Positions 1-64,000 of a stretch of DNA of 64,000 bases are shown piece by piece. The stretch is taken from NCBI GenBank assembly GCA_019744775.1, contig JAIETZ010000006.1, positions 41,092 to 105,091 of the forward strand. The letters are read 5' to 3'. The DNA is from Candidatus Obscuribacterales bacterium (GTDB lineage: Bacteria > Cyanobacteriota > Vampirovibrionia > Obscuribacterales > Obscuribacteraceae). The notes beneath the pieces are model-generated. The model was not told where the DNA came from and did no database searches. It saw only the letters and a list, made by a program, of their open reading frames with translations. A program made the translations under genes and the position numbers. Position 1 is the first letter of the stretch; each line of letters starts with the position of its first letter.

Positions 1-3000
1 GCGGCGAAGTCAGCTTATTAGCGCCAACTGGTCCCATCAACATAACGCCGGCTTCCGGCACTCTAGGCGGCACAACCCTACAAGGGGCAGGTTCAGGAAA
101 AGGTGGCTCGATTACCATGGTCTCCACTACATTGAGCCTAACCAATAATTACATACTCAATGTAAACGGTGGTTCCAGCGGCTCCGGAGGCAGTGTTTCC
201 ATAACCACTTTGGGCTCCACGGGTTCAATTGCCGTAGGCTCATCCAGTGGGCAGTTTGATATCACAGCCAATGGCGGCAGCGGCGCATCGGTCATAGGAG
301 GGAACATCAGACTGTCAGCGGGGCAAAATTTGACCATTACCGCTCCGGCAAGCAATTTGACGGTGGCGCCAACCAGTGGCACCGGTGGCAGCTTAACCCT
401 CATCGCAGGAACAGCAGCCTCAGGCAATCTTTCAGTGTCGGCGGCTTTGAGTGCCAATGCCGGAGGCACAGGCTCCGGTGGCTCTATTACTATCATCACC
501 AATAGCACAACTGCTTTCAACACCAACTCCAATTCCGGAGGCAACGGCGTGACAGGCGGAATTACGGCTAACGCCGCCGGCACCGGATCAGGTGGCTCAA
601 TATCCATCACTAATCTGCAAGGCGGCATTACCGTTTCAAGCCTGACAAGTGTTTCAGCAACAGCAGCAACAACCGGCAAGGGCGGTTCGCTATCTCTTTT
701 TGCGCCATTTGGAGCGATTACAATTACGCCGGCCAGTGGCACGCTGGGAGGAGCAACCGGTTTCAACGGGATAGGCACTACCGGTGGTGGTGGGCTCATA
801 TCCATGTCAGCCGGCAGCTTTTCGCTGACAAATAACTACACTCTTTCGGTCAACTCCGGCGCCTCAGCAATCACCGGCGGCACGGTCAGCTTGACCACCA
901 CCGGACAAGCAGCACCTCTGACAATCGGTTCAGGCAGCGGCGCCTTCGCCATCTCGGCCACAGGTGGTACCAACTCCACTACACCAACAAATATTTCAGT
1001 TTTGACAGCGGGCAATTTAACGATTACTTCGGCCAGCCTCTCCACTACACAAAGCTCTGGACGAGGACCAAACATCGTTTTAACTGCCGGAGTAACCGGT
1101 TCCGGATTTATTGCCGTAACAGGCGGACTTTCCGCCAATGGTGTAACCTCCGGTTCAGGCGGCACGATCACTCTGACAATGAACACCACCAATGTGTTCA
1201 ACGTCGGCGGTGGCGGCACCGGCACAACTGCGGCAATAACAGCAAATGCCGTAGGCACGGGCAATGGTGGCACGATATCCATAAATAATTTAGGCACTGC
1301 CGGAGGCATTTCATTAAGCTCATTAGCCAACGTATCGGTCAATTCATCCACATCAGGCGATGGCGGCAACCTGACACTTTACGTGCCATTCGGAACTCTC
1401 ACTCTTCCCAGCGCAGGTAATTTGTCAGCTAACGCATCAGGAAGCAATTTCAAAGGCGGCAGCATATTTCTACAGAGTTCAGCAATATCCTACAGCTCAA
1501 GTGGTGTCTTAACACTTAATGCCAACGCCGGCACCGGCACGGCCAACGGCGGCAGCATTTCCGTGGTGACTGGCAATCCCACTTCCGACATTACTGTCGG
1601 ATCAAGCTCCGGCAATATCGCACTTTCAGCCAGGGGCGGTCTCACAGGTGGAGACGGAGGCATTATTTTCCTTTCCGCCGGACGCAATTTGACAATTGAT
1701 CCCTCGGGCACCAACTTTGTTGTCGGTCCCCAAGCTGGAACCGGCAAGGGTGCCGATATAACTTTCCGCGCTGATTCAGCCGGCGCCGGAACAGTAAGAA
1801 TAACCGGCACGACTTCCTTCTCCGCCAATGGGCTGGGCTCCGGAAACGGCGGGAAAATAAGCATCAGCTCGGGCAATATCATTGACCTAAGCGCCTTATC
1901 CAGCCTATCCGTCAATGGTGGCACAAGTGGTTCCGGTGGTCAGCTGAGCCTTGAAACTTCATCATTCAGTTATCCCGCCTCAGCAGCACTGGCAATTAAT
2001 GCTAACGGCAACTCGTCGGGCAACGGTGGCATCATAACAATCAGCACCACCAATGCCGCGGTGAGTGTGGGCAGCTCAGCCGGCAATATCTCCATTTCTG
2101 CCGTGAGTGGTGCAAGTGGCGGCAACGGCGGTCAAGTGACGATATCATCAGGACAAGGTCTGACGATTAATGCCGCCTCTCTAAGCCTCGGTCCGCAAGG
2201 CACAAATGGTAATGGCGCAGTGCTTGCACTTTCAGCCGGCACAACAGACACCAACATATTGACGCTCACCGGTTCGCTTCTCGGACTGAGTGGTGCTGGA
2301 ACAGGCTTAGCAGGACAACTGACTCTAACATCAGCTCATAACGGCACTCTGACTATCGGTAACGCCACCATAGCCGCCAATGCCGGAAGCACAAGCAATG
2401 GTAATGGCGGACAAATTCTCATCACTTCCGGGACCGGCAGCCTGACAATGTCCAACACAGCGCTCTCGGCAAACGGTGCCGGCACTGGCGCGGGTGGCTT
2501 AATTTCTCTAACTGGAGGCAGCACAAGCATCGCTTCCGGCACCATAACAGCTGCAGCCGGCGCAACATCCGGCAACGGCGGACAGCTGACGCTATCAAGC
2601 ACTATTCTCAGCATAAGTGGTGGCACACTGGCATTGAGTGCAAATGGCACAGGCACAGGCAACGGTGGCAGTATCTCCATCGCAAGCACCAGCACTTTCA
2701 CCGGCTTTGCCATCGGTAGCGCCAGCGGCAATCTGACAATTTCGGCAGTCAGTGGCGCAGGCGGCGGCAACGGCGGAACAGTTTCCTTAGTTTCCGGCTG
2801 GGATCTGTCCATTGACCCCAGCGGCGGCAATTTAAATATCGGACCGCAGGGATCTTACGGCAATGGTGCACTATTAACACTTTCAGCCGGGCGCAATCTT
2901 GCTATAAGCTCTACTTTGTCGGTCAACGGCATAGGCGCAGGCTCAGGCGGCAGCGTCAGCATAAATACCTCAAGCGTCACCACATTTACAATAGGCTCGA

Positions 3001-19619: not shown

Positions 19620-19749
19620 TTTCATTCTGCACCCACTTAATCGTGCTTAAAAGCACTGGTTAGTTGTAAACGCTCTCAAATGCACAAGAGCTTAATTGCA
19701 AAATACCAGTTGCGAATTACATCTTGCAGTTCTACAAAAACTTCACAAG

Positions 19750-19762
19750 TTAAATATATAAT
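19750..19762 (+). promoter_or_regulatory. AT-only motif TTAAATATATA(AT) shared by both spacers; contains TATAAT (19757-19762). Candidate -10 region for gene 2
   Basis: The same 11-mer TTAAATATATA occurs at 31740-31750, upstream of gene 3. I found no convincing -35 hexamer at 16-18 nt spacing. Confidence 0.3.
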
Positions 19763-19843
19763 TCTCACAGAACCTATGAAAGAAAGTTCTGTCACTTCTA
19801 TATAGCACCCTGACTTACTCAGTCCCCTGTGCCCGGAATCCCA

Positions 19844-19918
19844 ATGAAGAAATCCCTACTAGCACTACCCCTGGCATTTTTGCTGACGTTCAATTATCTG
19901 CCTCTGCCGCTTCAAGCT
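19844..19918 (+). other. Sec-type signal peptide of gene 2
   Basis: The sequence is MKKSLLALPLAFLLTFNYLPLPLQA/QEAP, with two Lys followed by a ~20-residue hydrophobic stretch. The cleavage site is uncertain by a few residues (LQA|QE or QEA|P). There is no lipobox Cys. Confidence 0.65.
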
Positions 19919-31657: not shown

Positions 31658-31706
31658 ACTAACAGCTAATAACTAACCAGTTAGCTAACTAGAATTTCGT
31701 AAAACA

Positions 31707-31727
31707 TTAAACCGAACCCCGGTTTAA
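31707..31727 (+). terminator. Stem-loop TTAAACCG-aaccc-CGGTTTAA, 50 nt after the gene 2 stop (weak terminator candidate, no U-tract)
   Basis: It is a perfect 8-bp inverted repeat (31707-31714 / 31720-31727) with a 5-nt loop. It is followed by cggaaaag, not a T-run. Confidence 0.25.
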
Positions 31728-55900: not shown

Positions 55901-58900
55901 ACGGCAACAATTCAGCTGTGTCCATTAATGCCAATGTCTCAACAGGCGCAGGCGGCGAAATTGATGTTACTGGCAATGGTTCCGGCAACATTACTCGCAC
56001 CGGCGCTGTCACCCTAACCTCCGGAACCGTCAGGCTTTTAAGCTCATCAGGTTCCATCGGTTCTTCCGGTACTCCAATTCAAACAGCTGCAACAACATTG
56101 ACCGCCAACAACACGTCTACCGGAACTGCAGATATCACTAATGCCGGTGCAGTCACCCTGGGAGGATCATCAATAGCCGGCAATTTCTCGGTAACTACGA
56201 CAGGAGCCTCCGCGACCATCGGCACCTCAGGCTCTGTGACCTCCTCTACCGCCACCCTTACCTTGAGCGCCAACGGCACCATCACCGCATCCAACGCCCT
56301 CTTTGGTGCGTCTGTTGTGCTACAAACCTCTTCTGGATCAAATGGCAGCGTGACTCTGAATGCCGATACCACAGCCAGTGGTGGCAGTCTCACTATTACT
56401 ACCGATGGCACCGGCAATGTCACCAATGCCGGATCCACCAGTCTCACCTGTGGCAGCTGTAGTATGTTAATTACCGCCAATGATGTCACATTCTCCGGCT
56501 CCGTCAATGCCACCGGCGGCAACACAGTCACGCTCAGACCCAACGGCGCCAAGTCCATTTCTGTAGGAGGCACCGGCGGCACATTCTCAGTTGCATCTTC
56601 CGATCTGTCTGCCATAACTGCTGGAACTCTTGTCGTCGGCACAACCGCTCAAGCGGGCGGACTTACAGTAGCAAATGGTCTTAATGTATCCGGCTCAGGC
56701 GCAGGCGCTTACAACTTGCAATTCAACAACGGCGGTGCGTTCACATCTTCCGGACAAACAATAACGCTTGGTGCTAAGACTCTTACCATCACCACCACAG
56801 GAGGCTCCAGCACAACAAATCTAGGTGCAGTTAATGGCACCACCAGCAACGTCACTGTAAGCTCCGGCGGCGCACTTACTGTGAGCGGTGCCATGTCAAT
56901 CTCAGGAACGGCCACTGTCAGTCTGGCTACCAGCGGGAGCAACTCAGCTATCTCAATTACAGCCAATGCCTCAACCGGGGCGAGTGGTACGATGAGTCTC
57001 AATGCAAATGGTTCCGGCACAATCACACGTACTGGAGCCGTGACACTAACATCCGGCACCGTCAACCTAATATCTGGCACCGGAAATATAGGAAGCGGTG
57101 CAACTCCAATTCAAACAGCCGCCAGCATTCTTACTGTTAATAGTGGTAATCCTGCCACAGCTGATATTACAAATGCCGGTGCTGTCACTCTAGGAACTTC
57201 CACGGTTGGTACCAATTTATCAATTACAACCACGGGAGCTTCTGCTAATTTAGGCACTTCTGGTGCTATCACGACCACTCTAGGCAACATGTCCCTTACC
57301 GCCAATGGCAACATCACAATTTCCAATACTCTCATCGCTGGATCAACCGGCAATACCCTCACACTAACTACTTCTTCCGGCTCCAACGGCACCATCGCCG
57401 TTAATGCCAACGCGACTGCAAACAACGGCAATATAAACATAACGACAGACGGAACCGGCAACGTGACTAATGCTGTCTCCACGCAAATTTCAAGCAACAA
57501 CATTACAATAACTGCCAATGATGTGGCATTCTCCGGCACACTCGTCGGCGGCTTGAGCGTCAGCCTCCTACCAAATGGAAACAAATCCATCTCCGTCAAT
57601 GGCACGGGCGGTACCTTCTCCGTCACTGCCGCCGACCTTGCGGCAATTGCAACTACCACCCTAATTATTGGCACAACTGCTCAGTCGGGCGGCCTTACAA
57701 TTATTAGCGATTTCAATTCTCCGGTATCAATCTTAACTTTTAGGAACGGTGGCAATTACACCGCTGCCGGAAGGACCATTACGCTCAATTCTGCTAGTCT
57801 TACAATCAACGCTCTTGGAACAGTTGACACCGGTTCCACTACAGGGACCAACAATACCCTAAACATAACCGGAGGCGGTATCACCGTATCAGGCAACCTA
57901 GTAGGCGACTTAGGAGCACTTCTGACGACAACCAGCAACGGCAGTATAGCTATCAATGGCAATGTAAATGCGGGAGGCAACGAAGCAGACATCACAACAA
58001 ATGGCAGCGGTTCAATTACACGTTCTGGAAATGTCACCATTACAGGAAGCATAGTTCGCTTAGCCTCCGGCACCGGAAATATCGGGACAGTCGGCACTGC
58101 CATTCAAACAACTACAAACAACATACTCTCTATCAATACCGGTGGCAGCGGCACTGCCACAGTTACCAATACCTATGCCGGACCAATCTTGCTCGACACA
58201 TCCACCGTTGGCGGTGACTTCTCTCTCTCGACCACTGGCGCATCAGGAAATCTCAACACATTTGGAAACGTTACTTCAACTAGTGGAACACTGACGTTTG
58301 CAATTAATGGAACCATCCAAATCGGACATGCAGTCTCTGGAAATGCGGCAATTGTCCAAACGTCCTCAGGGTCCAACGGCAGCATTCTTGTCAATTCTAG
58401 CGCTGGCAGTTCCCTAACCGGCACCACCGGTGTCACCATCACAACTGATGGCTCAGGGGTGCTCTCAGTTGCCTCCGCTAGAACAATATCTACTACTAAC
58501 GCTCCAATTACAGTTACCGCTGAAGACATATTATTGAGCGGCTCGCTGAATGCAGGAACCAATACCGTCACTCTTGTACCAAATGGTAGCAAAGCCATTG
58601 CTATATCCGGCGGCGGTGCCACCTTCAATGTTGACAATGGTGAACTTTCGCGGATAACTGCCGGCACTCTGATAGTAGGCTCAAGAGCTGTCACAGGCAA
58701 TCTCACAGTAAATGGTGCTGTTAACGTATCCGGTTCAGGAGCCGGTGCTTACAACTTGCAATTCAACAATGGCGGCACATTCACATCATCAGGACAAACA
58801 ATTACACTCGGCACAAAGAACCTCACAATCAGCGCCTCGGGTATTGTCACACTTGGCACCATTAATGGTTCATCTGGAACTGTGTCCGTGACATCCGGCA

Positions 58901-61900
58901 GTGCACTTACCATCTCCAACGCTCTATCCCTAAGCGGAAGTGGAACGATTACATTGGCTACGGACACCGGCAACACAAATGTCGCCCTGAATGCCGCCGT
59001 CTCTACCGGTGCATCCGGGATCATCAATATCACAGCTAGTGGCTCCGGCGATATTACGAGCGGCAATTCAGGAATAGACCTTACAACAGGCACCGTCAAT
59101 CTCACGTCCGGCAGCGGCAGCATCTACAGAGTTGTTGGCTCAGGTCCTATTTCGGTCTCCGCATCTTCACTGTCTGTTAACACCGGTAATCCTGGTACTG
59201 CCCAAATTCTTACCAGTGGCCCTATCACTCTAGCCACGTCTTCTGTAGGAGGCAATTTCACTGTTACAACTGCTGGATCAATTAATACCTCAGGCACTGT
59301 CACTTCCGTTAATGGAACGCTGAACTTGGATGCTGCAGGTACTATCACCGTTTCTAATCCAATGTCCGGCAACTTCGTGCTTCTACAGACACACGTTACA
59401 TCAAATGGATCCGTTGCACTAAATGCCAACCTTACCGGCACAACGGGTGTCAATATCACAACTGATGGAACAGGCAACGTTACTAATGCCGGATCAACTT
59501 CAATTACTGCCGTTGATCAGCCAATCAATATTACAGCCAATAATGTGACCTTCTCTGGTACGGTTAACGCAGGCACTACCGGAATCGTCACATTGAAACC
59601 CAATGGTGCCAAATCAATTTCTGTCGGAGCTTCCTCCAGCACATTCAATGTAACTTCAACGAATCTCTCAGCCATTACTGCTGGAACCTTAAATATCGGC
59701 TCTCAATCCGACGCAGGTGGACTTACTATAGGAGGCGCAATCAACGTCTCTGGAAGCGGCGCTGGTGCCTTCAACCTCTACCTTAACAACGCCGGCGCAG
59801 TTACGTCCTCCGGTCAAACAATAACTATTGGCAGTAAACTCCTCCAAATTACAACAACAACCCCATCCGGCACAGTCACACTAGGAACCATATCAGGTAC
59901 AACAGGCAGCATGACTGTGACATCCGGTGGAAACATTACAGTTGGCTCTGCAGTAACATTCAGCGGCGTTGCCGGTGGCGTGTCACTGGTAGGGCAAACG
60001 AGTTCCAACGCCAATATCGCCATCAATGCCAACGTATCGCTCGCCGCCGGCTCGGGCGCCATTACTCTTTTGACTTATGGAACAGGCAATATAACTAGAT
60101 CTGGCAGCGTCACGCTTACTTCTGATTCCGTTCAATTTGTAACCGACACTGGCAGCATTGGTTCTGCCGGCACTCCAATGCTCACTGCCGCCACCCAAAG
60201 CTTGTCTGCCAATACCGGCAATTCAGGAGCTGCATACATTAGCAATGCCGGTGCGATTTTCCTAACTACCTCGTCAGTGGGTGGCGACTTCTCAGTCACA
60301 ACAACTGGAGCCTCCGCCACTCTCGGCATCACAGGAAATGTAACATCTACTAATGGCGCAGTGACGCTTGCCGCCAACGGCACCATTACAGTCTTCAATC
60401 CACGTACCATATCCGGAAATACCGTTGTCCTGCAAACATCCTCAGGTTCTGGTGGTTCGATTACCTTGAATGGCAACGTCACCGGTACCGGCGGGGTGAC
60501 TATCACTACCGACGGAGCAGGCAATGTAACCAATGCTGCCACCAAATCGATAAGCACAACAAATTCCCCTATCACCATAACAGCTAATGACGTCTCATTC
60601 TCAGGCACGGTCAATGCCGGTACGAGTTTAGTAACGCTCCAACCAAATGGAGCCAAGGCAATTTCTGTTGGTTCAACTGGCTCAACATTCTCAGTTACGA
60701 GCAGCGATCTCTCCGCGATTACAGCAGGAACACTCATTGTCGGCACTACTTCTCAAGCAGGCGGTCTAACCATAGCCAGCTCACTTAACGTCTCCGGCTC
60801 AGGTGCGGGTAATTACAATCTGCAATTCAACAACGGCGGCAATTACACAAATTCTGGAAACACACTGACACTTGGCTCCAAGAATTTAACAGTAACATCT
60901 CTGGGCACCGTTAATACAGGCACCGTAACAGGCACATCAACAACGATAGCAATGACATCCGGAACAGGTATGACGGCATCAGGTGATATCACTGCTTCTG
61001 CTGGTTCTGTAGCATTGACTAATACCGGAAACGGTACGATGGCAATTAACAACAACATTACTGGTTCAACGGGTGTCACTATGGCAACGAACGGAGGCAC
61101 CTCAGATATTAATGTCATAGTCAATAAGACTGTAAGCGCCACTACTGGCGATGTTTCTCTGACCACTCCAACAGCAACAATAAATGGCAAGCTTACGACA
61201 GCCAAAGATGACGGCAACGTGATAGTCCAAAACAGCGGCGCTCTAACTATGAATGGAACAGGTACTCTGGAAGTCACAGGAAATGGCTACCCAACGATCA
61301 ATGTTCAAGCCGGTGGTGCCAATGCTCTGAATTTAAATGGCTCGTTTACCTACAATTCATGTTCATCTTGCATGGTGCAATTACAATCAGCTGCTTCAGG
61401 CGGCTCAGTTGTCGTCGCCAATAATTCAACTCAAACAGGCAACAACGGCGGCTACTTCCAATTCATAGCTCCGCAAGTCACCTTTAGCGGCAATGCCACC
61501 GTAAACAACACAGACGGATATCTGGATCTGACCGGCAATACGTTAAGTTCAACAATTACCTTTGCCGACAATTCCACCGTTAATCTCAATCTCGGCACCG
61601 GTACCGCCTTCATTGGTTCATACGATACTCATGCCTTGGTCATCAACAAGACTGCCGGCGCCAATACCGCGACACTAAATGTTACCGGCGAAGTACAGAC
61701 TTATTCATATGGCGCCAACCAAACGCTTGCCGCCAACGTCGTTCTTCAATCCGACAGCAACATCACTTTCAATGTCGATGGCGGCACTCTAACCACCAAC
61801 GGCTCCATCGTCTCCACTATGTCCGGAGGCACCATAACACTATCCGGACATGACTCCAACCTGACCCTTGCCGGCACACCACAACAAGTTGCAGTAACCG

Positions 61901-64000
61901 GCGGCGGCAACTCTGCAATCATCGTTCGCGCCAGCGGCACCAACCACACTGTCACCGTCAACTCCAGCTACACTCTTAATGCCGGCGCTTCCGGCTATGT
62001 CGCCATCGAAGCAGACAATTTGAGTGTCGGTTCAAGCGTCACAACTTCCTCCAACAGCCCAGTTGCCTTCTATGGACAAAACCTAACCCTCAGCGGTGGC
62101 GCTGTCGTTACCAGCCCCACAGGCGTGTCCTTGTTTGCCTCCGGTGGCTCCAATGTATTGACCATCACAGCGCCCGACGCCACCTCCGCTCAAATTTCCT
62201 CAACTGCCGGACTGGAATTCCATGGCAACAGCATTGTCTTCGCCAAATCAGCAGGCGGCAACACCACTTTCCTCAACTTGAATAATTCCCCTGTCTACAT
62301 TCAATCAGTCGGCGGCAACGTTACTATAAATCCGAGCGTCACAGTGAGATCAAACAACGACATTACACTGCAAGCAAACAGCAATGCCGCCTTCAATATC
62401 AACGGCACTTTGGAATCAACCAAAAACGGCGGTGTCATCAGCCTCTCCGGCAACAACGGACTGACCATTGGCGGTACCACTGCCGGCACAGTCAAGGTTT
62501 CAGGCTCAGGAGCCAACTCCATCTCAGTATTCGGCTTTGGTAGCGGCTTGACTCTGAATAATTCACTGACACTAGATGCCGGCAGCTCAGGCACAGCAAT
62601 AATAGGCGCTGCCTCCGGCAACATGACAATGGCAGCCAACAAGTCAATCACATTCGCAAATTCCACTGCCGGCAGCGTCCAAGCAACGACACTTCTTATG
62701 TCAGGCGGCAACACAATTACAGGCAGCAAGACATCAGGCACGGCACTCTCCATTTTCTCGCCTAATCCAAATCCATTTACTCTCAATTTGCAAGCTACTA
62801 CAACCAATACCATCGCCTCAGGCGGTGGCGCCATCAACATCTTCTCTCCGAAAAATGTCACTGTAGGCATAAATGGTGGCGGACCGACAGACACTGCCAC
62901 ACTGAATTTGAATGGCGGTCCGGTAACGATTACATCTAATCAAGGCACGACGGTTATCAGCTCACGCGTGATTATCAATTCGCAAAATGACGTCACTTTC
63001 AATGTCAATCAAATTACCGTTGGGGCTTCCGGTCAAATCAATACATCCAACGGCTCGATTTCGCTGATTGCCCGCACAGGGACTATCAGTATTGGCAACA
63101 ATGTCACCATGTACGCTAATGAGGGTAATTTGATTATTCAAAACACCGACAGTTCAGGCGGCACAATAGACATTGCCTCCGGCGCCAACCTAACCGGTTA
63201 TACCGACAGCAACCCATCATTCGGTTACGTCAACATCGTTGTCGGTCCGATTCCATCAATGCCTGTTGTTGGAACTGTGCCTGCTAATGTAATCACCAAT
63301 CAATCAGGTGGTGGCGTTATCTATTTCGGCGCCAGCAGCATTAACGCTTCGGCTCCGGATAACACAATTAACGCCAAAGGCCGCGATGTTGTATTCAGCA
63401 CAGGCGAGCAAGGATCGTCTGCCATCACTCTTGGTGGCAACGTGACAATCACTGCCGACCCGCCGGAGCATCCAGCAGCCTCCAATACAATTACAACTGC
63501 CGAAGTGCCGACATTCATGAGCATGTTCATGAACTCCAGCGCTTTGACAGCAACCGATAGCACTTCCATAAACAGCCAACGAAATTCGAGCATCGCCACA
63601 ACCGTCATCCCATTTGATTCCAGCCCGGCATCAAGTGTCAACACCTCAGTTGTCCAGGACACCATCGGCAATGTCGTCAATCAGGCTCTTGAGCAATCGG
63701 GCATCCTCGACGGCGCTCCTAAGGTCAAAGACAAAGACGAAGACAAAGAAAACTCCAAGAATCCCTACCAACCAATCAGCTACTCACCGGATCAACCAAT
63801 CAGCTACTCGCCAGCAGTCGCCAATACGGCTAAGTTTGTTCCAGTGAGCAGCAGTCACAGCCTTTGCACTCTAGGTACATCCGGCACCAGCATCAAGTGC
63901 CTGGGCGGATCTCAGGTCTTCGTTGACGAGCCCAATGTCGTCGAGATAAGAAAAGGCGAAGCACTAATTGCGCCGACTAGAAAAGCCACAACGGTTGTTG
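31873..64000 (+). CDS. Giant secreted beta-solenoid-type repeat protein, paralogue 3; 3'-partial (runs off the window, >=10,709 codons in-window)
   Basis: It is not in the ORF track because there is no in-window stop. An in-frame TGA sits at 31834-31836 upstream. ATG 31873 gives MGTSRSLLPTKVLMVLLTWQLILPGFLAFPPAAYA|QD. I checked the frame (pos mod 3 = 1) at His codons 33844, 34621, 35389, 36163, 36940, 39298, 40078, 40849 and 41620. I also checked it at Leu codons 43111, 48964 through 60820 and at Asn 63760. No + strand frame-1 ORF is listed anywhere after 31873, so no stop interrupts it. The last ~550 nt align with the C-terminal region of genes 1 and 2. Confidence 0.87.
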   Translation, partial: MGTSRSLLPTKVLMVLLTWQLILPGFLAFPPAAYAQDASTPPAAPAPAPTPDLDLSSAAKNFTAPTNLSPTNITVGGQTVTVQASQALTAAEFVAVRQVMNTGNQYLQLNDLGVAVGGGLRLNPTLMTGIGNLVVPESVRVSQNAAVLQSLNLAGNFVNSGTYNIFSSNPAVTAASINAANIFNNAGATISSSLANLTLNAVNNIVNAGTITSAGNLSMMAGGSITNTGALAMMSALNNINMTANNIVNSGVIQSQLANINIASQMASNLAMNNMAGQLKALSGNINFRDLAFSGKHNLSLIGGDFLSHQLNMYSGDGIVNADIGNVTGQINISAGEAHVSAATNNLNLGNMNITGDPTYYNTAGDVTISGNLGTSTTPLTVLAIVASGNILTTTGAGSIDTRGLSGNGGAITMVAGAKFTSDGPASGSNDTTSTLTITGASLTGGKIDLNTGAAISYIGSSSTGGVGNGGNIQLVAFAGSASDSGTITLPTSTPVFANGNGGGNGGAISMIAGANSGTAITTGDLTSTGASGTGSIALATAQPTIFTIFNDPNVIISPGGAIGSGAFIAGATTGASISTQNLQTSAGTVSITAGNNAGINTITNAGGTVTINTTSSTAFNIGGGGVNGTTGAITANNTSGQGGTISITNNGSGGITHNTTANLSVTSAGNGRGGAIILNAIGTGAGGPLTIGTGATAVTISANAIGTGSVGVAPAANISLLGTTLSFSTNGLTLSSTGGTSGAGGKVNVSVLGGTLTAGTATSLIINATGGGTSGAGGTISLASSGALAVTTGANFTNAPTNGAGGVYNLTSYGSSVTVTGALSASAVGANGGAGGNIFASAATTASFSSTVSASAIGSIGGAGGTISILSNSGTTFNIGGGGGNGTGGAITANAVTGGQGGQLYITNNGTGGITHNTTANVSVTSAGNGLGGLVQLDAVGSGSGGALVIGNGGTAVTISANASGSGSVGTSNNNILLYGTTITSANGLTLNATGGTTGAGGKIIVSTSNSGITAGSATFVVNAVGGSTSGAGGQITLNSSGALAVTTGANFTAAPTNGAGPSYTFISTGSTIAVTGALSASAVGANGGAGGSIYANAFSSAGFSSTVSASALGSTGGAGGTITIFSNSSSPFNIGGSSTQGTSGAITANAVTGGQGGQVFITNNGIGGITHNTTANISVTAAGNGLGGVVSLDAVGTNSLGGTLTLGTGTAVTITASAAGSGTVGSAVTNNIFLKGSTISFVTNGPILTASGGTTGAGGNIYIEATNGALTAGTAATLRPTATGGSTSGAGGTITIKSSGNLSVTPGAGVFTAAPVSGAGPTYNLISTQGSVTVTAALSASAVGGIGGNGGNITATAGTTVGFTGALSASALVSGNGGSITITSNSSTTFAVGGSGTQGTSTTIAANAVSAGQGGKIFITNNGTGGITHNTSANLSVTAAGNGLGGVISLDAVGSNSVGGPLTLNAAGGVAITASAIGSGTVGVAVSNNIFLKGESLVMGAGGVQANTTGGTTGAGGKITVQITNGALTIGTAATLRLSAIGGGTSGAGGTITISSSGALTATPGANFTASPTNGAGPIFSLTSTGSSVTTLAALSASATGAAGGAGGSITINAATTANITGALGASASGSTGGNGGVISISSNSDSTFNIGGSATQGTSGALLANAATSGQGGVITIINNGVGGITHNTSANISVTAAGNGLGGSVTLDAVGTGTGGPLQIGTGGTAVTIAANASGTGAVGTAPTTNISLKGTTLAYSSLGLTLQATGGTTAPAGGKISVQVTDGAIQTGASNSLLISAVGGSTSGAGGTITISAKGALAVTPGANFTAAPTSGKGGNYNLTSTNDSVSIIGGSLSANGVTSGAGGSITISAGQNNSVSGGRLSFSTSSSTLTANGAGGGNGGSISVTVSSPFAFNIGGAATNANGTGAAITANSGGSGGAGGSVVITSTGIGGITLPGNNISVNATLGAGGTIKLLAAEGPITGPLNIAAGTTLNAGSTMDEGGEIWLSGSTINWTGSAAQGLTLNADASQVVNFGDGGIVSIKTTDSVTSLNIGTGAQSISISARGGDMTGAGGQVTLSSGKDITLSIGSGFVVGPTNGSGATFTFTAGTNASAGSGNISISGGSLYASAVGAGLSGLGGSGGTVTIIAGQNNAAGGTLSFATAGSTILSDSTGTIGGGIISITTNSSTAFNIGGASPGANGTGAAISARATGHAGSGGSITIKNMGSGGITLPGSNILVNASSGAGGTITLDAASGSTAGALTITAGSVLSVNAAGSGNFNGGQITLKGSSISWSGASTPGLTLNANAVGSGNGGSISVTTTGTTSDLAIGTSATSLSLAARGGSLNSSNGKGGTITISAGRDLSVTTSSISVAPQGATGDGATISLIAGATGSTGNLAITGALDASAVTRGSGSSAGGSIALASKSSTTFNVGGGGSNGTTGALSANATQNGQGGTISITNNGTGGITHNTTANISVLSAGQGKGGVISLDAVGSGSGGPLTLGTGATAVTLSANALGQGIGGTTPTNNIFLKGSTLSFSTNGLTLNSNGGRTGSGGKITVQLLSGNITAGTATTLIATATGGTTSGAGGSISLLSGSGSVTVTTGASFTAAPTDGAGPSYTLTSSSQAVSVTGALSASAVGSVGGVGGSITASGGTTLGFSSTVSASAIGSTGGAGGTITLSSTSGSTFNVGGSSTQGTSGAITANAAANGQGGTISITNNSTGGITHNTSANMSITAAGNGEGGAILLDAVGSGAGGTLTLGTGATAVTLDANSIGAGSVGTVMTNNVRLKATSISFSTNGLIVNATGGTTGAGGNISIEATNGALTAGTLTTLVLNAVGGSTSGAGGSITLKSSGALTVTPSASFNAAATSGAGPSYSLTSTGSSVSVAAALSASATGAIGGNGGSITVSAGTTAGFTGAVSASALVSGNGGTISIASNSATTFGVGTSTTQGTNSTIAANAVTSGQGGTVSITNNGTGGITHNTTANLSISSAGNGLGGSIVLDAVGAGSGGPLTLGTGATLLTLTANASGSGTTGTAPTNNIRIKGSTLSFSTNGLSLNATGGTTGSGGNIYVQTTTGAVTAGTATTLIASAIGGSTSGNGGTISLIAGGALTVTPGASFTAAPTSGAGPTYNLTSSNSTVSVAAALSASAVGAIGGNGGSINVSAASTAGFTGAVSANALVSGKGGSIVISTNSGTTFGVGTSTTQGTNSTISANAVSSGQGGTISITNNGTGGITHNTTANISVTSAGNGEGGTIIFDAIGTGTGGTLTLGTGATQVALSANSSGSGNFGTMPTNNIRLKGSTLAFSTNGLALNATGGTTGNGGNISVQVTGGTLTAGTATTLIVNAGGGSTTGAGGTVSLTSSGTLTVTAGASFLVAPTSGNGGNFNLTSTGANVSVTGAFAASAVGTIGGDGGTITVNAATNALFSSTVAASATGINGSTGGTISITTNSSSAFSMGSAATNGTSGAITAQANVGGQGGTVNITNIGGDISTGLSPGVTTSSLNLTSKTGNIGTSGSPVLVSTSMVTSNTGAPGTSFISNSGSATIIGTSSVGGNFSVTGTTSNAEMFTNGTVTSQTGTLTLTNNGTINTYHAITGYALALSTSGSNGSINLDQNATGISGVTITTNGSGNVTNAASTTIGTTNSSITISTNDVSFSGSINAGVGTVSLQQNGNKPISVGGSGGTVSILASDLAAITAGTLVIGNSTQPGAITVAGTIDVSGAGPAGVYNLQFNTTTTFTSTGQTITLGTKSLTINMGNSATLGATTATTGNIYITSGNAPTIDAAVSTLGSLIVTGVNSINATSTIASNFLYLYSDAGIFLNQPVSGNTGVVLIAATNSISADSINANGLNGGNVVLLAAGAVNITGTIDTSSTGGGTGGNINIIASSSFSNIQVQNLTTTGTSGGDVVMSYLGTSLPGIGVNVTGNITTDATGLNGSAGSIALTGSASILISGNISAQATANGSSTTALGGSVFLSSGSTSSTAISVGTINTSATNNGTGDKAGNIILLSATGSTGLNPSNITKGTLTQTGGTAGSNLVYGLNGAATTIPSSLNVTPTTSINIRPGGYDTVQGSGGAGSLNIAMNTGGDTQMLVPLNTSAGSGSTSLFLNSFTQVSGSESLILALPGGLTTNAAINTSSTTGLVNIVAQGAITMGGALNLNSASDVIVQSTNASGITGGFNFTATAARHVQIYGTMTPFSTTVGGNVSLTSTTGATYVSGNITTTPSTSGNGGYVSIVSGTTITKSNITTSATGTTSNGGYIYLNAQGAITTGNLTSTGGASSGVPGRINITAGAGGTGNLVTGTITGAGGSDTSSMYLSSPGSITTGDVNFISTVNMTAGTNVLTGAITTRNNVTLSATSGYVVAGGSISTVPSTSVVGGYLKVDAGTYITVQSINTTAGTGGNSNGGTVYLNAQSDITAGNITVHGQGTGAPGAVLISAGNGGTGNVQIESISGSGVNNGVNVGIDTPGTISAGHIAYVGLVAMSAGTGITLSGINTTPFAATAQAGFIIVRSLTGNINVTNTGITANSSGSGILGATVRLLANAGDITVAGGINLAGTSTASGGGLEVTANNLTLSAGLDGGALNLSGSGTTGSTGYAYLFTQNNVTLNAITMNSGTSGLGSLFYIQAGNSGTGNISTGAITGTTALSGHEMLFMAPGTITVNGNIDIHITSTGCCATFQAVAGNAGTSRAAAQSGTLLINGNIDASGANNGGNVYLVNMGTNGGITVGNINTNVTTSGQGNAVVVIAHGALNLGNINTSATGVFFGGPVFLSSGATSGTAVTTGTITASGGAGSQSLWIAKTSTGGVSLGTLTGFAGQFIGTPTGAVANVTSSQTIALGSGTLTGFNPGGFDSINAPTGTISLTYSAVSPWIPLVVRSGNFSAQTLTGTAGTIGLVYAAGDINIGGNITGISDLKLRSSAGGFTAQNVTITRTGLNSLMGINVSQDITMANTFNWSSSWDGNGGFMGLYSAGGGLNLGTAGNSSSNSISTAASGATGFGGNMIIVTRNSLVDYNTTITSAGGSTSGNAGQISIHSLTGSLDFYSRYNTVTHNNSSILANSNSGAGALIDLQGYNGINFLRDNSLSGGTTNATVSASGTTAAGTILFWNFTDSGILNMSEAIAVSATGTNGGISANIGQTSTINGTLTAPSVLLLTDYLNETITTTGAITASGSGTAVNMTGLGANFVLNGNVTASTASVGVASLGLTIGSSSTVSGVGATLTTFSLANSGVVTSATTGTPVTLTSTGPLTLSGTGAYNLTGGGPNTLTISVTGGATLTVNGTNTFNPGSAGTVNFNAQNYGNSIVFGTGTKTITAATGTVNISSPNVTFQSGTSLSTNLGAGRTLTINSGGGANPLTITGPGTGNTASLVVSGGSFSISPTSGQAVIFTGGGTINFTGGATTISTGSNADITIGTNIGGATAKTISANGTGDIIRVGDSTVSGTTVALSSGTGDIGTSTMFIQTSASSSLTANSGSGGTAFVTNAGAVSIGASTVGSTFSLTTTGASANLTTTGAITSSTGTLTITTNGNLTASNALSGNSLVLVTSSGSNGTIALNANATGTTGITATTDGTGNFTNGASSAISTSGNTPISITANDVTLSGTMSAGSGTVTLVPNGAKSVSFSSTGGTFSIAASDIGAITAGTLIVGTTAQAGGFTIGGAVNVAGAGPAGVFNLQFNNGGAFTSANQTITIGARTLTINTSGASSTTQLGGISGSSGSVTVSSGGTLTIGVGVSSNLTMSGASTINLSTNGNNSGIAVNANISTGSSGSVTINANGSGSISRSGSVTVSGPTVTLVSGSGNIGASGTAILTAATNTLTINTGGSGTADVSNAGAITLGASTVGSNFTFTTTGSSANIGTSGAITSTSGTLTLTANGNITASNAFSGNALVLQTSSGSNGAVTLNANAIGTTGVTITTDGTGNVTNNGATSISSTNAPITITANDVSFTGVNAGTGTVTLQPNGAKAISINGSSGTFTVLSTDLSAITAGTLIIGTTSQAGGMTLQAALNPTANLQLLNGGNFTSGGQTITMGSRTLTINALGTTTVNAISGSGSTTLSVNGGTGLTVNGIVNISGIGGTINLTTSNNGSIALNADVGQTGVTTNISANGSGNITNGGSIVSGDFVNLSSGTGNIGTVGTPIQVGQTGDKSVNTGGTGSAFITSAFNLSLITSTVGGTFTVTTTGASNIIGVNGALTSTSGTLTLTSNLGSVVVGNPVSGNTVVLQTGSTSNGTITINSSGSVTGTNGVTITTDGTGDLVVSNSNAISSTNAAIAITANTVTLGTGTINAGSGTVSLLPNGAKSIAVGGSGIGGTFSISGTELAAITAGTLIVGTTTQTGGLTVSGAINVSGTGAGTYHLQFNNGGNYTSSGQTITLGDHNLTVNSLGTINSGTVTGSLSTVNMTSSSTTTISSAVTVGSSGTVSLTTTSNGAVTVNANLGGGSSTTITTNGTGDVTNAVSTTISAASGGTISITANDVTFSGSVSAPSGTVTILPNGNKSITVAGGAGTMTIAASDLSAITAGTLILGTTTNSGGLTISGTVDVSGAGPAGVYNLQLNNGGAFTSSGQTINLGAKTLTVNTLGASSTTTLGAINGTTSNVTVSSGGTLTLSSAMAISGTATVSLSTNGNNSGIAINANASTGASGSIALNANGSGTISRTGAVTLTSGTLQLTSGTGNIGSGGTPIQTAASILTANTGSPGTATITNAGAVTLGASTVGGNFSVTTTGASATIGTSGNITSTFGSLTLTANGTITTSNTVSASTLILQTSSGSNGAVNLNANATGSSSVTITTDGTGNVTNAVSTSISSSIAVTITANDVAFSGSVSSGGNLSLIPNGAKSITVGSAGGTFNVQSADLSAITAGTLIVGSTSQAGGLTIGSALNVSGSGAGAYNLQFNNGDVFTSSGQTITLGAKTLTVTTLGASSTTTLGAISGTTSNITVSSGGTLTVSGAIAVSGTATVQLQTPANSSQIAINNNVSTGSGGTINITNTGNVSRSGSFTLTSGTVNFQNNGGTVGSAGTPMLTAVSNLTVNGTSSGSSTISNTGAVSIGGSSITGDLSITTTGASANITTTTSSIQSISNSLTLIANGNITTTSGVSGFTGLTLQTSSGTNGNINLQGSLNAGAPNGSVVITTDGTGNVTSTTQPINGANNVTITANDVSFGSAVLATTLTLIPNGAKSISVASSSGTFSVTTSDIAQFNAVDIVIGTTAQAGGLTVGGALNISSSTFSSLQLNNGGNITSSGQTITLGAKPLSINAVGTITYGSIVSTTGNISMTSGSTLSIPTAITISSSGIISLTTNAANAAITISANVNAGASGIINVSANGSGTITRSGSVTLTANTVNLTSTSGNIGASGTPILTAAGTLTANTGGSATADISNTGALLIGTSTIGGNFSVTTTGASATIGTSGSITSTSGILTLTGNGTITASNALSGNALVLQTSSGSNGAITLNANATGTTGVTITTDGTGNVTNAGSTSISSTNSAVTITANDVAFSGTVNAGTNTVTLLPNGSKSITVGSAGGTFNVQSADLSAITTGTLIVGTGAQTGGLTVDSNIDVSGAGPSGVYNLDFRNASSITSAGQTITLGAKSLNIQTFASSSITLGAISGTTSPVTVTSSGTLTIGAAIAVSGTATINLSSGTNSDTTINANISTGASGAIQIFAGGTGSITRSGAATLTSGSVSLMTITGSIGSSGTPILTSTALLSANTGSPGTATISNAGATTLGSSVVGGNFSVTTTGASANLSVASNAVSTNGTLSLTANGTLSAAGPSSGNIVLLTTSSGSNGAITLNNNVTGTNGITITADGTGNVTNAVSTSISTTNSPISITANDVAFSGSVNAGTNNIFLNPNGAKSISVGGTGGTFSVTGSDLSGITASTLTIGDYSIAGGLTVSGSINVSGSGAGAYNLQLYNGGAFTSSGQTITLGAKSLEITTLGASSTTTLGAISGTTSSINVSSGGTLTVNGAINVSGTATVILFANGNNSAVSINANVSTGAGGEIDVTGNGSGNITRTGAVTLTSGTVRLLSSSGSIGSSGTPIQTAATTLTANNTSTGTADITNAGAVTLGGSSIAGNFSVTTTGASATIGTSGSVTSSTATLTLSANGTITASNALFGASVVLQTSSGSNGSVTLNADTTASGGSLTITTDGTGNVTNAGSTSLTCGSCSMLITANDVTFSGSVNATGGNTVTLRPNGAKSISVGGTGGTFSVASSDLSAITAGTLVVGTTAQAGGLTVANGLNVSGSGAGAYNLQFNNGGAFTSSGQTITLGAKTLTITTTGGSSTTNLGAVNGTTSNVTVSSGGALTVSGAMSISGTATVSLATSGSNSAISITANASTGASGTMSLNANGSGTITRTGAVTLTSGTVNLISGTGNIGSGATPIQTAASILTVNSGNPATADITNAGAVTLGTSTVGTNLSITTTGASANLGTSGAITTTLGNMSLTANGNITISNTLIAGSTGNTLTLTTSSGSNGTIAVNANATANNGNINITTDGTGNVTNAVSTQISSNNITITANDVAFSGTLVGGLSVSLLPNGNKSISVNGTGGTFSVTAADLAAIATTTLIIGTTAQSGGLTIISDFNSPVSILTFRNGGNYTAAGRTITLNSASLTINALGTVDTGSTTGTNNTLNITGGGITVSGNLVGDLGALLTTTSNGSIAINGNVNAGGNEADITTNGSGSITRSGNVTITGSIVRLASGTGNIGTVGTAIQTTTNNILSINTGGSGTATVTNTYAGPILLDTSTVGGDFSLSTTGASGNLNTFGNVTSTSGTLTFAINGTIQIGHAVSGNAAIVQTSSGSNGSILVNSSAGSSLTGTTGVTITTDGSGVLSVASARTISTTNAPITVTAEDILLSGSLNAGTNTVTLVPNGSKAIAISGGGATFNVDNGELSRITAGTLIVGSRAVTGNLTVNGAVNVSGSGAGAYNLQFNNGGTFTSSGQTITLGTKNLTISASGIVTLGTINGSSGTVSVTSGSALTISNALSLSGSGTITLATDTGNTNVALNAAVSTGASGIINITASGSGDITSGNSGIDLTTGTVNLTSGSGSIYRVVGSGPISVSASSLSVNTGNPGTAQILTSGPITLATSSVGGNFTVTTAGSINTSGTVTSVNGTLNLDAAGTITVSNPMSGNFVLLQTHVTSNGSVALNANLTGTTGVNITTDGTGNVTNAGSTSITAVDQPINITANNVTFSGTVNAGTTGIVTLKPNGAKSISVGASSSTFNVTSTNLSAITAGTLNIGSQSDAGGLTIGGAINVSGSGAGAFNLYLNNAGAVTSSGQTITIGSKLLQITTTTPSGTVTLGTISGTTGSMTVTSGGNITVGSAVTFSGVAGGVSLVGQTSSNANIAINANVSLAAGSGAITLLTYGTGNITRSGSVTLTSDSVQFVTDTGSIGSAGTPMLTAATQSLSANTGNSGAAYISNAGAIFLTTSSVGGDFSVTTTGASATLGITGNVTSTNGAVTLAANGTITVFNPRTISGNTVVLQTSSGSGGSITLNGNVTGTGGVTITTDGAGNVTNAATKSISTTNSPITITANDVSFSGTVNAGTSLVTLQPNGAKAISVGSTGSTFSVTSSDLSAITAGTLIVGTTSQAGGLTIASSLNVSGSGAGNYNLQFNNGGNYTNSGNTLTLGSKNLTVTSLGTVNTGTVTGTSTTIAMTSGTGMTASGDITASAGSVALTNTGNGTMAINNNITGSTGVTMATNGGTSDINVIVNKTVSATTGDVSLTTPTATINGKLTTAKDDGNVIVQNSGALTMNGTGTLEVTGNGYPTINVQAGGANALNLNGSFTYNSCSSCMVQLQSAASGGSVVVANNSTQTGNNGGYFQFIAPQVTFSGNATVNNTDGYLDLTGNTLSSTITFADNSTVNLNLGTGTAFIGSYDTHALVINKTAGANTATLNVTGEVQTYSYGANQTLAANVVLQSDSNITFNVDGGTLTTNGSIVSTMSGGTITLSGHDSNLTLAGTPQQVAVTGGGNSAIIVRASGTNHTVTVNSSYTLNAGASGYVAIEADNLSVGSSVTTSSNSPVAFYGQNLTLSGGAVVTSPTGVSLFASGGSNVLTITAPDATSAQISSTAGLEFHGNSIVFAKSAGGNTTFLNLNNSPVYIQSVGGNVTINPSVTVRSNNDITLQANSNAAFNINGTLESTKNGGVISLSGNNGLTIGGTTAGTVKVSGSGANSISVFGFGSGLTLNNSLTLDAGSSGTAIIGAASGNMTMAANKSITFANSTAGSVQATTLLMSGGNTITGSKTSGTALSIFSPNPNPFTLNLQATTTNTIASGGGAINIFSPKNVTVGINGGGPTDTATLNLNGGPVTITSNQGTTVISSRVIINSQNDVTFNVNQITVGASGQINTSNGSISLIARTGTISIGNNVTMYANEGNLIIQNTDSSGGTIDIASGANLTGYTDSNPSFGYVNIVVGPIPSMPVVGTVPANVITNQSGGGVIYFGASSINASAPDNTINAKGRDVVFSTGEQGSSAITLGGNVTITADPPEHPAASNTITTAEVPTFMSMFMNSSALTATDSTSINSQRNSSIATTVIPFDSSPASSVNTSVVQDTIGNVVNQALEQSGILDGAPKVKDKDEDKENSKNPYQPISYSPDQPISYSPAVANTAKFVPVSSSHSLCTLGTSGTSIKCLGGSQVFVDEPNVVEIRKGEALIAPTRKATTVV
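31978..33000 (+). other. Conserved N-terminal head domain (gene 3), with an extra TAAEF-type module at about 32050-32320
   Basis: It has the same collinear motifs as the gene 2 head. The extra N-terminal segment is QALTAAEFVAVRQVMNTGNQYLQLNDLGVAVGGGLRLNPTLMTGIGNLVVPESVRV. This resembles the TAAE(L/F)...LVIPASV module found inside the 2.47-kb supermodules of genes 1 and 2. Confidence 0.65.
33610..37400 (+). repeat. B-type superrepeat array, block 1 (5 units of 256-259 codons)
   Basis: The His codons of the GGITHNT motif lie at 33844, 34621, 35389, 36163 and 36940, with spacings of 777, 768, 774 and 777 nt. The units are collinear (FNIGG..ITANA..GQGG.I.ITNNG.GGITHNT.AN.SVT.AGNG.GG...LDAVG...). 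Confidence 0.85.
37400..39150 (+). repeat. A-type units (2, ~280 aa each) interrupting the B array of gene 3
   Basis: GGSVVITSTGIGGITLPGNNISVNA occurs at ~37705-37770 and GGSITIKNMGSGGITLPGSNILVNA at ~38545-38610. ISISARGGDMTGAGGQVTLSSGKDITLS and VVGPTNGSGATFTFTAG match gene 1 A-type units (ALSARGGLTGGDGGIIFLSAGRNLTI and VVGPQAGTGKGADITFRA). Confidence 0.7.
39150..42390 (+). repeat. B-type superrepeat array, block 2 (4 units)
   Basis: The GGITHNT His codons lie at 39298, 40078, 40849 and 41620, with spacings of 780, 771 and 771 nt. Confidence 0.85.
42390..43200 (+). repeat. Isolated C-type unit of gene 3
   Basis: The sequence is ITISTNDVSFSGSINAGVGTVSLQQNGNKPISVGGSGGTVSILASDLAAITAGTLVIGNSTQPGAITVAGTIDVSGAGPAGVYNLQFN (Leu codon 43111). 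It has the same motif order as the 48.2-60.9 kb array. Confidence 0.75.
43200..48200 (+). other. Least-repetitive core of gene 3 (~5 kb), relatively rich in aromatic residues
   Basis: I saw no long-period tandem repeat here. Local ~145-aa units occur near 44.6 and 45.06 kb (NGGYIYLNAQGAITTGNLT vs NGGTVYLNAQSDITAGNIT). Trp-containing segments are SLWIAK, SPWIPLVVRSGNF, NTFNWSSSWDGNGGFMGLY and ILFWNFTDSG. A CC pair lies at 45958-45963. Confidence 0.6.
48200..60900 (+). repeat. C-type superrepeat array (12-13 units of ~339-348 codons; one truncated to 196 codons)
   Basis: The Leu codons of the (Y/F)NLQFNNGG motif lie at 48964, 49984, 51019, 51607, 52627, 53644, 54664, 55684, 56716, 57733, 58756, 59776 and 60820. 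The spacings are 1020, 1035, 588, 1020, 1017, 1020, 1020, 1032, 1017, 1023, 1020 and 1044 nt. Confidence 0.88.
61240..63465 (+). other. Shared C-terminal beta-helix module of gene 3
   Basis: It has the same motif order: TINVQAGGANALNLNGSFTYNSCSSCMVQLQS, GYLDLTGNTLSS, FIGSYDTHALVINKTAGAN, NPNPFTLNLQA and MYANEGNLIIQNT. ITADPP lies at 63448-63465. Confidence 0.85.
63769..63816 (+). repeat. 24-nt in-frame tandem duplication (QPISYSPD / QPISYSPA)
   Basis: caaccaatcagctactcaccg (63769-63789) matches caaccaatcagctactcgcca (63793-63813) at 19 of 21 positions. Genes 1 and 2 carry a single PISYSP. Confidence 0.85.
63835..64000 (+). other. Start of the FecR-like beta domain (inferred) of gene 3, cut by the window edge
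   Basis: The sequence is FVPVSSSHSLCTLGTSGTSIKCLGGSQVFVDEPNVVEIRKGEALIAPTRKATTVV. It aligns with the same domain in genes 1 and 2. Confidence 0.4.

Follow-up and report, generated by a model that had tools for sequence, protein, structure and literature searches.

Three giant genes built on one plan

The stretch of DNA analysed in this study, referred to as "the window", comprises 64,000 nucleotides from a metagenome-assembled genome (MAG) of an uncultured Candidatus Obscuribacterales bacterium, and it is filled by three tandem paralogous genes, here called g1, g2 and g3, that encode giant, repetitive proteins predicted to be exported. A first-pass annotation of the DNA had counted 21,184 codons in these genes, separated by spacers of 224 and 215 nt, and these figures were reproduced exactly, with 6538 + 3937 + 10709 codons covering 19619 + 11814 + 32128 = 63,561 of the 64,000 nt (99.3%). 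Its statement that the window carries no accessory gene was also borne out, as the remaining open reading frames (ORFs) are antisense shadows of at most 394 aa. Many minus-strand ORFs of 150-394 aa lie opposite the giant genes (for example, 35661-36845 and 41739-42683) because the antisense of Gly, Thr, Ser and Ala codons is stop-poor, and none of them has a Pfam match. A scan of the window with Rfam found no family present.

Two of the genes are already public as hypothetical proteins. g1 is NCBI MBX9879478.1 (K2Y22_13540, 7404 aa, 703 kDa), encoded on a 181,771-nt contig of the MAG. This protein (P0005 in our exhaustive profile search) is 100% identical to g1 over residues 867-7404, and its first 866 aa, including the signal peptide and a g2-type head, are encoded upstream of the window. 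g2 exactly matches MBX9879479.1 (K2Y22_13545, 379 kDa). The part of g3 within the window accounts for at least 1,011 kDa. A JGI fragment that is 75% identical to the end of g3 (P0001) extends 144 aa past the position at which the window ends, and the C-terminal profile is cut on g3 at position 385 of 531; because of this, g3 should have a full length of about 10,850 aa (approximately 144 aa of it beyond the window) and a mass of about 1.03 million daltons. The JGI metagenomes contained no exact copy of a 34-mer taken from the end of the window. Family genes take up approximately 66 kb at this locus, and a fourth giant paralogue with a g3-type head (P0013, 6111 aa, partial) is present on a different contig of the same MAG.

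All three proteins share one plan, consisting of a Sec signal peptide, a head, a repeat stalk, a stalk-end cap, a linker and a tail (Table 1). The head and tail profiles each match once per protein, at the ends. The signal peptide is the sole hydrophobic segment of each protein, and the cleavage sites (marked by a slash) are AxA-like and followed by Q, namely ...AFA/QE in g1, ...LQA/QE in g2 and ...AYA/QD in g3. Family members also have in common the head (about 300-450 aa): its profile (A2) scored 418-542 bits against full-length g1 (P0005), g2 and g3, and it is kept in about 50 retrieved family members (E < 1e-20). It occurs in two subtypes, a shorter one in g1 and g2 and another in g3 that carries an extra N-terminal 80-100 aa or so. 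Genes 2 and 3 had been annotated as sharing both signal peptide and head; the heads are indeed 46-57% identical, but the signal peptides differ in sequence.

A C-terminal module of about 1,050 aa, likewise proposed earlier to be common to all three proteins, was recovered at 45-85% identity (residues 5440-6538 of g1, 2850-3947 of g2 and 9750-10721 of g3 in open-frame numbering), with the g3 copy about 144 aa short at the window end. It consists of the distal stalk with the cap, the linker and the tail, and the C-terminal profiles (A1/A5) scored 684 bits for g1, 680 bits for g2 and 381 bits for g3, which is cut by the window end. Conservation is greatest in the final stretch of stalk ahead of the cap, where about 340 aa were compared and the paralogues are 71-81% identical, with a ratio of nonsynonymous to synonymous substitution rates (dN/dS) of approximately 0.07-0.10. 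The cap terminates in VTITADPP, a motif that does not vary among the six sequences of alignment A1 and is kept in 56 of 121 family members; that its Asp-Pro bond might serve as a self-cleavage or processing site is speculative. The linker is of low complexity, is predicted to be disordered and has a length of 46-188 aa. The tail of about 200 aa starts near a P-I-S/A-Y/F motif and ends with a conserved ...KMAACLM..T..HG.Y.

Table 1. Features of the window, in order of position (SP, signal peptide; AF2, AlphaFold2; pLDDT, predicted local distance difference test)
Feature	Position (nt)	Strand	Basis and remarks
g1	3-19619	+	Stop-free frame of 6538 codons, open at left edge of window
g1, relic of stalk-end cap in mid-gene	6444-6842	+	Open-frame aa ~2148-2280; A1 profile positions 97-230, 100 bits, E = 1.6e-32
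g1, internal duplication of 823-aa super-module	8604-13774	+	2469-nt offset; DNA self-match 72%; protein 63-87%; dN/dS 0.14
g1, distal stalk and end cap	16320-18704	+	TITADPP at 18684-18704; dN/dS ~0.10 vs g3 and g2
g1, linker	18705-18977	+	Low-complexity, between cap and tail
g1, tail domain	18978-19616	+	PISYSP motif; beta-sandwich and helices; alignment A1, profile, AF2 model of g2 equivalent
Spacer 1 (224 nt)	19620-19843	.	AT-rich box GTTAAATATATAATTC at ~19749-19764
g2	19844-31657	+	Frame open from 19814 (3947 codons); first ATG 19844; complete, 3937 aa
g2, Sec-type SP	19844-19918	+	MKKSLLALPLAFLLTFNYLPLPLQA followed by QE; read from sequence, cleavage by AxA-like rule
g2, head domain	19937-21256	+	Family-conserved; profile matches; AF2 all-beta solenoid
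g2, distal stalk and end cap	28361-30733	+	TITADPP at 30713-30733
g2, linker	30734-31015	+	Predicted disordered (AF2 pLDDT <50)
g2, tail domain	31016-31654	+	AF2 model
Spacer 2 (215 nt)	31658-31872	.	AT-rich box at ~31738-31756 and 120-nt leader
g3	31873-64000	+	Frame open from 31837 (10,721 codons); ATG 31873; 10,709 codons in window; runs off right end
g3, Sec-type SP	31873-31977	+	...LAFPPAAYA followed by QD; sequence, hydrophobic window
g3, head domain	32071-33471	+	Subtype with additional N-terminal extension, common to P0013; profile matches
g3, array of ~258-aa modules	33634-42036	+	774-780 nt period; autocorrelation peak at lag 257; dN/dS 0.11
g3, array of ~13.5 tandem 341-aa modules	47947-61545	+	1023-nt period; jackhmmer coordinates; dN/dS 0.07
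g3, distal stalk and end cap	61084-63465	+	TITADPP at 63445-63465
g3, start of tail	63772-64000	+	Remainder outside window; profile; P0001

The three frames are real, old and selected coding sequences. As the source is a short-read-style MAG, the gene content is highly repetitive and the long antisense ORFs show that composition suppresses stop codons, we considered that the frames might be mis-assembled repeat arrays, decaying pseudogenes or chance frames in biased DNA. However, there are no exact DNA repeats of 30 nt or more in the 64 kb and the best internal DNA matches reach 64-72% identity, which makes collapse or expansion of the assembly unlikely; Tandem Repeats Finder detected no tandem array in the window because the repeat copies are too diverged. 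Between paralogous segments and repeat copies, dN/dS was 0.07-0.14 with saturated dS (1.3-3.4), which shows that the repeats are of old origin and that purifying selection acts on the proteins. Furthermore, the signal peptide, head, cap and tail follow one another as they should, the gene order recurs in an independent assembly made from another sample (see below), homologues number in the thousands, and the chance of 10,721 stop-free codons is negligible. An artefact is therefore exceedingly improbable, and this reading is already largely refuted.

In all three proteins, 64-68% of residues are Gly, Thr, Ser, Asn or Ala, 3.5-5.4% are charged (Asp, Glu, Lys or Arg) and 0.1-0.3% are Cys, in agreement with the low-charge, Cys-poor composition described at first. 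The stalks are assembled from diverged repeat modules. The duplicated 823-aa super-module of g1 is also related to residues ~1068-1990 in the middle of g2, and the 341-aa module of g3 (60% mean column identity in alignment A4) occurs, in addition to its tandem array, once on its own at 42130-43143. Midway through g1 lies a relic of a stalk-end cap in which VTITADPP has changed to VTVNSTTG and behind which the stalk sequence carries on. This suggests that g1 formed when two ancestral tandem paralogues fused in frame, the first gene losing its tail and the second its head. The locus thus illustrates two routes by which giant genes may grow: by duplicating modules (of 258, 341 and 823 aa) and, apparently, by fusing adjacent paralogues in frame.

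A large family in Candidatus Obscuribacterales

The genes are not orphans. When the C-terminal profile (end cap, linker and tail) was searched against 1.84 billion representative sequences, as the first-pass annotation had proposed for the conserved C-terminal region, 2,331 clusters were matched at E <= 1e-3 and 438 at E <= 1e-30. Many members are 2,000-7,400 aa long, the longest having 7,404 aa, and every named member is annotated "hypothetical protein". Word-indexed homologue searches returned only 4, 11 and 8 matches and strongly understate the family relative to the exhaustive profile search. In a scan of one-genome-per-species contigs, a set that lacks the source genome and in which the best match had 49% identity, 21 loci were confirmed, 19 of them labelled Obscuribacterales, Obscuribacter, Melainabacteria or "Cyanobacteria bacterium", and several genomes carried more than one family locus. 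Named members, too, come almost exclusively from Obscuribacterales or Melainabacteria. The family is large, lineage-specific and widespread in Candidatus Obscuribacterales (Melainabacteria/Vampirovibrionia). Outside the Melainabacteria labels we noted two loci in MAGs labelled Chloroflexota and Proteobacteria (L001 and L002) and a fragment labelled Saccharimonadales (P0161), which could be mis-binned contigs or rare transfers.

Homologues occur singly at some loci (L007, L008 and L022) and in tandem or clustered at others, with pairs or triplets of paralogues at L006, L010, L016, L020 and L024 and at least six tandem paralogues on CAWJSE010000002 (L012 and L015). The description of the window as a "multi-gene system" is thus an overstatement: it holds three copies of one kind of gene, a cluster of paralogues rather than of cooperating parts. 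A divergent locus in an independent assembly (L023; Logan SRR31912327) has the same g1-g2-g3 order, with a g1-like tail (60% identity), a g2-like gene of 3022 aa and a g3-like gene of at least 8676 aa; judged from this comparison, the cassette is a conserved unit with drifting stalk lengths. Between the g2-like and g3-like genes of L023 (10064-10598), a ParE-type toxin gene and a small partner gene have been inserted, and both are absent from the window.

Two unusual members deserve mention. In another Obscuribacterales MAG (L025, 3001-4758), a g3-type gene (P0157) lies just downstream of a gene for a giant protein (at least 2661 aa); its product is cut off at 585 aa, has an odd C-terminus and likely reflects a truncated or pseudogenised copy. 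An NCBI entry (P0159, 236 aa) joins a g2-type signal peptide and head (52% identical) to a fragment of an S8 subtilase (PF00082); either this is a variant of the family in which head and enzyme are fused, or the contig is chimeric.

The surroundings of homologues were surveyed through called or Pfam-tested genes within 10 kb (L007/L008, the L009 group, L022 and L024). These neighbours are unrelated housekeeping or regulatory genes, including those for EF-Tu, a SpoU methylase, alanine racemase, ClpXP, homogentisate dioxygenase, kinases and a resistance-nodulation-division (RND) efflux operon. Neither a TpsB nor an ABC transporter nor another export partner was found among them. A response-regulator/GGDEF protein, the sole ORF family that recurred across synteny groups, was considered as a partner and rejected, this being a common domain.

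Fold, export and probable function

For the head of g2, AF2 (12 sequences) yielded a model with a pLDDT of 83.7 and a predicted template modelling score (pTM) of 0.86, which is all-beta with short strands every 6-7 residues. The head can thus be modelled with confidence as a beta-solenoid or beta-helix-like fold. In Foldseek comparisons with the PDB, the (non-significant) matches of this model were mostly beta-helices or beta-solenoids; the top ones were secretion domains of HxuA, HMW1 and EtpA, and TibA, Ag43, pectate lyases, isopullulanase and phage tailspikes were also found. The only match of the head/early-stalk profile to PDB sequences was 4peu (E = 0.002), which we take to be Cthe_2159. 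The latter protein has been described as a right-handed beta-helix (PMC8746771).

Within the stalks, the strongest hydrophobic periodicity was at lag 2 in 7 of 9 segments tested, so beta strands with an in/out pattern are indicated, and the N-terminal array of g3 has secondary periodicity peaks near 27-29 residues. A homologue at L007 gave a sub-threshold match to Fil_haemagg (19.8 bits versus a cutoff of 21.5). Of the parallel beta-helix fibres proposed in the first-pass annotation, the head is therefore well modelled, whereas for the stalk, the composition, the periodicity and these weak matches suggest a solenoid, with a fibre shape as the prediction.

In the AF2 model that includes the g2 tail, residues 170-345 (pLDDT 64-89) form about 14 short strands of 3-9 residues followed by 3-4 helices. 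Foldseek found no significant match for this model in the PDB or BFVD, and none of the profiles built for the C-terminal region, for the tail by itself and for the 341-aa module matched a PDB sequence. Two ideas about the tail were dropped: a FecR-like domain, because the anti-sigma structure 4m0h was matched with a probability of only 0.44 and a template modelling (TM) score of 0.25; and an intramolecular chaperone, which received no support. When 24 tails were scanned one by one with Pfam, the only matches were weak ones to the eukaryotic GGA N-GAT helix (best E = 5e-4; PDB 1j2j), given in 6 of the tails by a helix of 27 residues (..LL..L..S....D.....L.KM), for example at ~31480-31570 in g2. 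This resemblance is probably due to chance.

The export and anchoring modules had not been matched to any described class of giant adhesin at first, and this held in Pfam, NCBIfam, PDB sequence and fold searches, none of which gave a significant match. Pfam, which was to show whether the genes fall into a characterised family, was run over all 21,184 codons and returned no match that passed its threshold (DUF5649 reached 22.9 bits against a cutoff of 25, and the rest were at chance level); NCBIfam, run on g2 and on the end regions of g1 and g3, had the same outcome. The proteins also end without an LPxTG or PEP motif and without a terminal transmembrane segment, and no Pfam match to the C-terminal domain of the type IX secretion system was found.

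The layout of the proteins recalls two-partner secretion (TPS, type Vb). Like TpsA proteins (FhaB/FHA of Bordetella, HMW1, EtpA, HxuA and CdiA), they have a Sec signal, a conserved N-terminal beta-helical domain of about 300 aa, a very long repetitive shaft (beta-helical in TpsA) and several paralogues per genome; and their disordered segment and conserved end resemble the prodomain in the well-established layout of FhaB. They might therefore be extremely diverged TPS exoproteins, the head being a TPS domain for a TpsB encoded elsewhere in the genome and the linker and tail corresponding to the prodomain as a module for retention in the periplasm or for regulation, perhaps removed at Asp-Pro. 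The best-ranked Foldseek matches of the head, 4rm6 and 4i84 (HxuA), 2odl (HMW1) and 8cpk (EtpA), and the sub-threshold Fil_haemagg match would fit this notion, but the fold matches are poor (E of 0.06 or more, TM 0.2-0.3). Similarly, when the head profile was compared by hhalign with the TPS domain of EtpA (plasmid p948 of enterotoxigenic E. coli, ETEC), the sole aligned stretch placed GNLTNNGSIYAYSTNPN of the head on the GNLKANGQVFLVNP hallmark of EtpA, at a probability of 0.2%, which is a lead and not evidence. Unlike TpsA proteins, the window proteins have no Pfam or NCBIfam match at E <= 0.1, to the TPS domain (Haemagg_act, PF05860) or otherwise, and no match to Fil_haemagg repeats (PF05594); the motif NPNG[ILV] is absent from them, and NP is not conserved across the family. 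An Omp85-type TpsB, whose gene usually adjoins that of its exoprotein, is encoded neither in the 64-kb window nor by the genes surveyed up to 10 kb from homologues, and g3 (~10,850 aa) is roughly three times as long as FhaB. We consider this explanation rather unlikely; if it were true, the finding would be of smaller value, namely a new, very large clade of a known system.

Other classes were compared in the same way. Classical autotransporter adhesins (Ag43, TibA, pertactin and the chlamydial Pmps) likewise combine a Sec signal with Gly/Thr/Ser/Asn-rich repeats and a beta-helical passenger, but they end in a 12-stranded barrel (PF03797), for which there was no Pfam match and no counterpart among the fold matches of the tail, a domain of about 135 residues of short strands plus helices. 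RTX/type I adhesins (LapA, SiiE and MpIBP) and SwmB are also megadalton, repetitive proteins with a head or tail and an extender. In contrast to these, the window proteins have Sec signals, contain 0-2 GGxGxD motifs each in place of RTX arrays and are not adjoined by genes for ATP-binding cassette (ABC) or membrane fusion protein (MFP) components of type I secretion in the window; and their repeats appear solenoid-like instead of forming immunoglobulin-like (Ig-like) beads.

Taken together, we favour the reading that the proteins are Sec-exported beta-solenoid surface fibres, probably adhesin-like and of a lineage-specific family, and regard it as reasonably probable. In this model, Sec would export each protein, which would then thread out of the diderm envelope and fold into a long, rigid, uncharged beta-helical fibre. 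With the rise of an FHA-type helix, approximately 0.024 nm per residue, the fibres would measure about 94 nm (g2), 178 nm (g1) and 260 nm (g3), so that each of the three genes would yield a fibre of its own length. Export recognition, anchoring, folding nucleation or contact with a partner might be the tasks of the conserved head and tail, while the stalk would mainly set the reach. Because the strongest constraint falls on the distal stalk and cap, a role of this segment as a folding nucleus or docking surface would fit, and as the disordered linker and globular tail together recall the prodomain of FhaB, the tail might plausibly act in retention within the periplasm. Fibrillar adhesins, too, project a terminal domain on a repetitive stalk of variable length, and the stalk evolves fast (PMC9210967); however, the window stalks do not belong to known stalk-domain families, and no known adhesive domain was found with Pfam.

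Several points weigh against the surface-fibre reading: no ligand-binding domain was recognised in the Pfam and NCBIfam scans; the head has neither a significant Foldseek match in the PDB nor a sequence match judged significant; the solenoid fold of the stalk is deduced from composition, periodicity and weak matches; outer-membrane crossing and expression are predictions; and no transporter, chaperone or glycosyltransferase is conserved beside homologues. Surface location and any role in adhesion, prey attachment or sheath building are likewise predictions. The first-pass interpretation is therefore partly supported, being largely right but going beyond the evidence on function and on the notion of a system.

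A more far-reaching possibility is that the head and tail define an undescribed Sec-dependent export and anchoring route for megadalton beta-solenoid fibres in non-photosynthetic cyanobacteria, functionally a new branch or analogue of type V secretion with no recognisable TPS domain, barrel or neighbouring partner gene. The tail would then act in periplasmic retention or in folding and might be released at Asp-Pro. This is quite unlikely in our view. The novelty lies in a very large family, specific to this lineage, in which the ends that would serve export and anchoring have no described counterpart, and these unmatched ends offer a concrete place to seek a new route for megadalton proteins across the diderm envelope; giant repetitive surface proteins as such are of a familiar kind.

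The proteins could also be structural envelope parts instead of adhesins, forming a sheath or S-layer-like coat, or acting in motility as does the surface protein SwmB of marine Synechococcus. The many paralogues per genome, lineage-wide conservation, the low-charge, Thr/Ser/Gly-rich make-up typical of surface-coat proteins and the lack of a detectable ligand-binding domain are all compatible with this, and SwmB, with 10,791 aa, is comparable to g3 in size. However, a head, variable stalk and tail are typical of projecting fibres and not of lattices, no similarity to S-layer families was found in Pfam, and SwmB-type proteins are secreted by the type I route and are not known to carry Sec signal peptides. 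Such a structural role is decidedly unlikely.

Finally, the head might bind or cut polysaccharides of prey or host in the manner of a tailspike, as part of predation or contact-dependent attack. Vampirovibrio, which is a predator, belongs to the same class as Obscuribacterales, the weak fold matches of the head include isopullulanase, pectate lyases and phage depolymerases or tailspikes, and a related head is joined to the S8 peptidase fragment in P0159. But Obscuribacterales are not known as predators, no catalytic or toxin domain was detected in the proteins, all fold matches of the head are non-significant, and P0159, a 236-aa partial sequence on a 2.7-kb contig, may be chimeric. For Omnitrophota, a link between giant genes and a predatory way of life has been proposed; their MAG-derived giant proteins are mostly unannotated, contain beta-helix segments and are membrane-anchored with multiple domains (SecA-like helicase, enzymatic domains and antiparallel beta-helix) (West-Roberts et al., bioRxiv 10.1101/2023.11.21.568195). 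That work does not mention Melainabacteria, and its proteins belong to another phylum, whereas the window proteins have a single head-stalk-tail architecture and many paralogues. We hold this explanation to be highly unlikely.

In the literature searched, no paper linked Obscuribacterales or Melainabacteria to giant proteins or filamentous haemagglutinins. No other non-photosynthetic bacteria are more closely related to cyanobacteria, and next to nothing is known of the cell surface in these lineages. With thousands of members, often several per genome, the family is probably a major determinant of their contact with surfaces, hosts or prey.

Spacers and minor sequence features

The three genes are probably transcribed separately, because each follows its own AT-rich spacer. 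Within the whole window, AAATATATA is confined to two sites, 19752 in spacer 1 and 31742 in spacer 2, and lies inside (T)TTAAATATATA(A/T)(T/A)T boxes, similar versions of which are retained in the orthologous spacers of L023. These boxes are probably separate promoters, with spacer 1 as the putative promoter region of g2; a scan for consensus sigma-70 promoters gave no match on the plus strand.

The 120-nt leader in front of the g3 start (31752-31872) is about 80% identical to the corresponding leader of L023 (10783-10908), whereas the encoded g3 and L023 proteins are only 38-60% identical. A leader of this type is not kept in more distant g3-type genes (L025 and L027). A structured RNA was considered here and rejected, as there was no excess folding (z = 0.69), no covariation and no Rfam match.

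The rare Cys residues of the stalks occur nearly all as adjacent Cys-Cys (6 pairs, at nt 7812, 10857, 13329, 22169, 29882 and 45958) or as CxxC (open-frame residues 8205/8208 and 9842/9845 of g3). Such pairing is far above the chance expectation at a Cys content this low, and these residues may form vicinal disulfides or metal sites.

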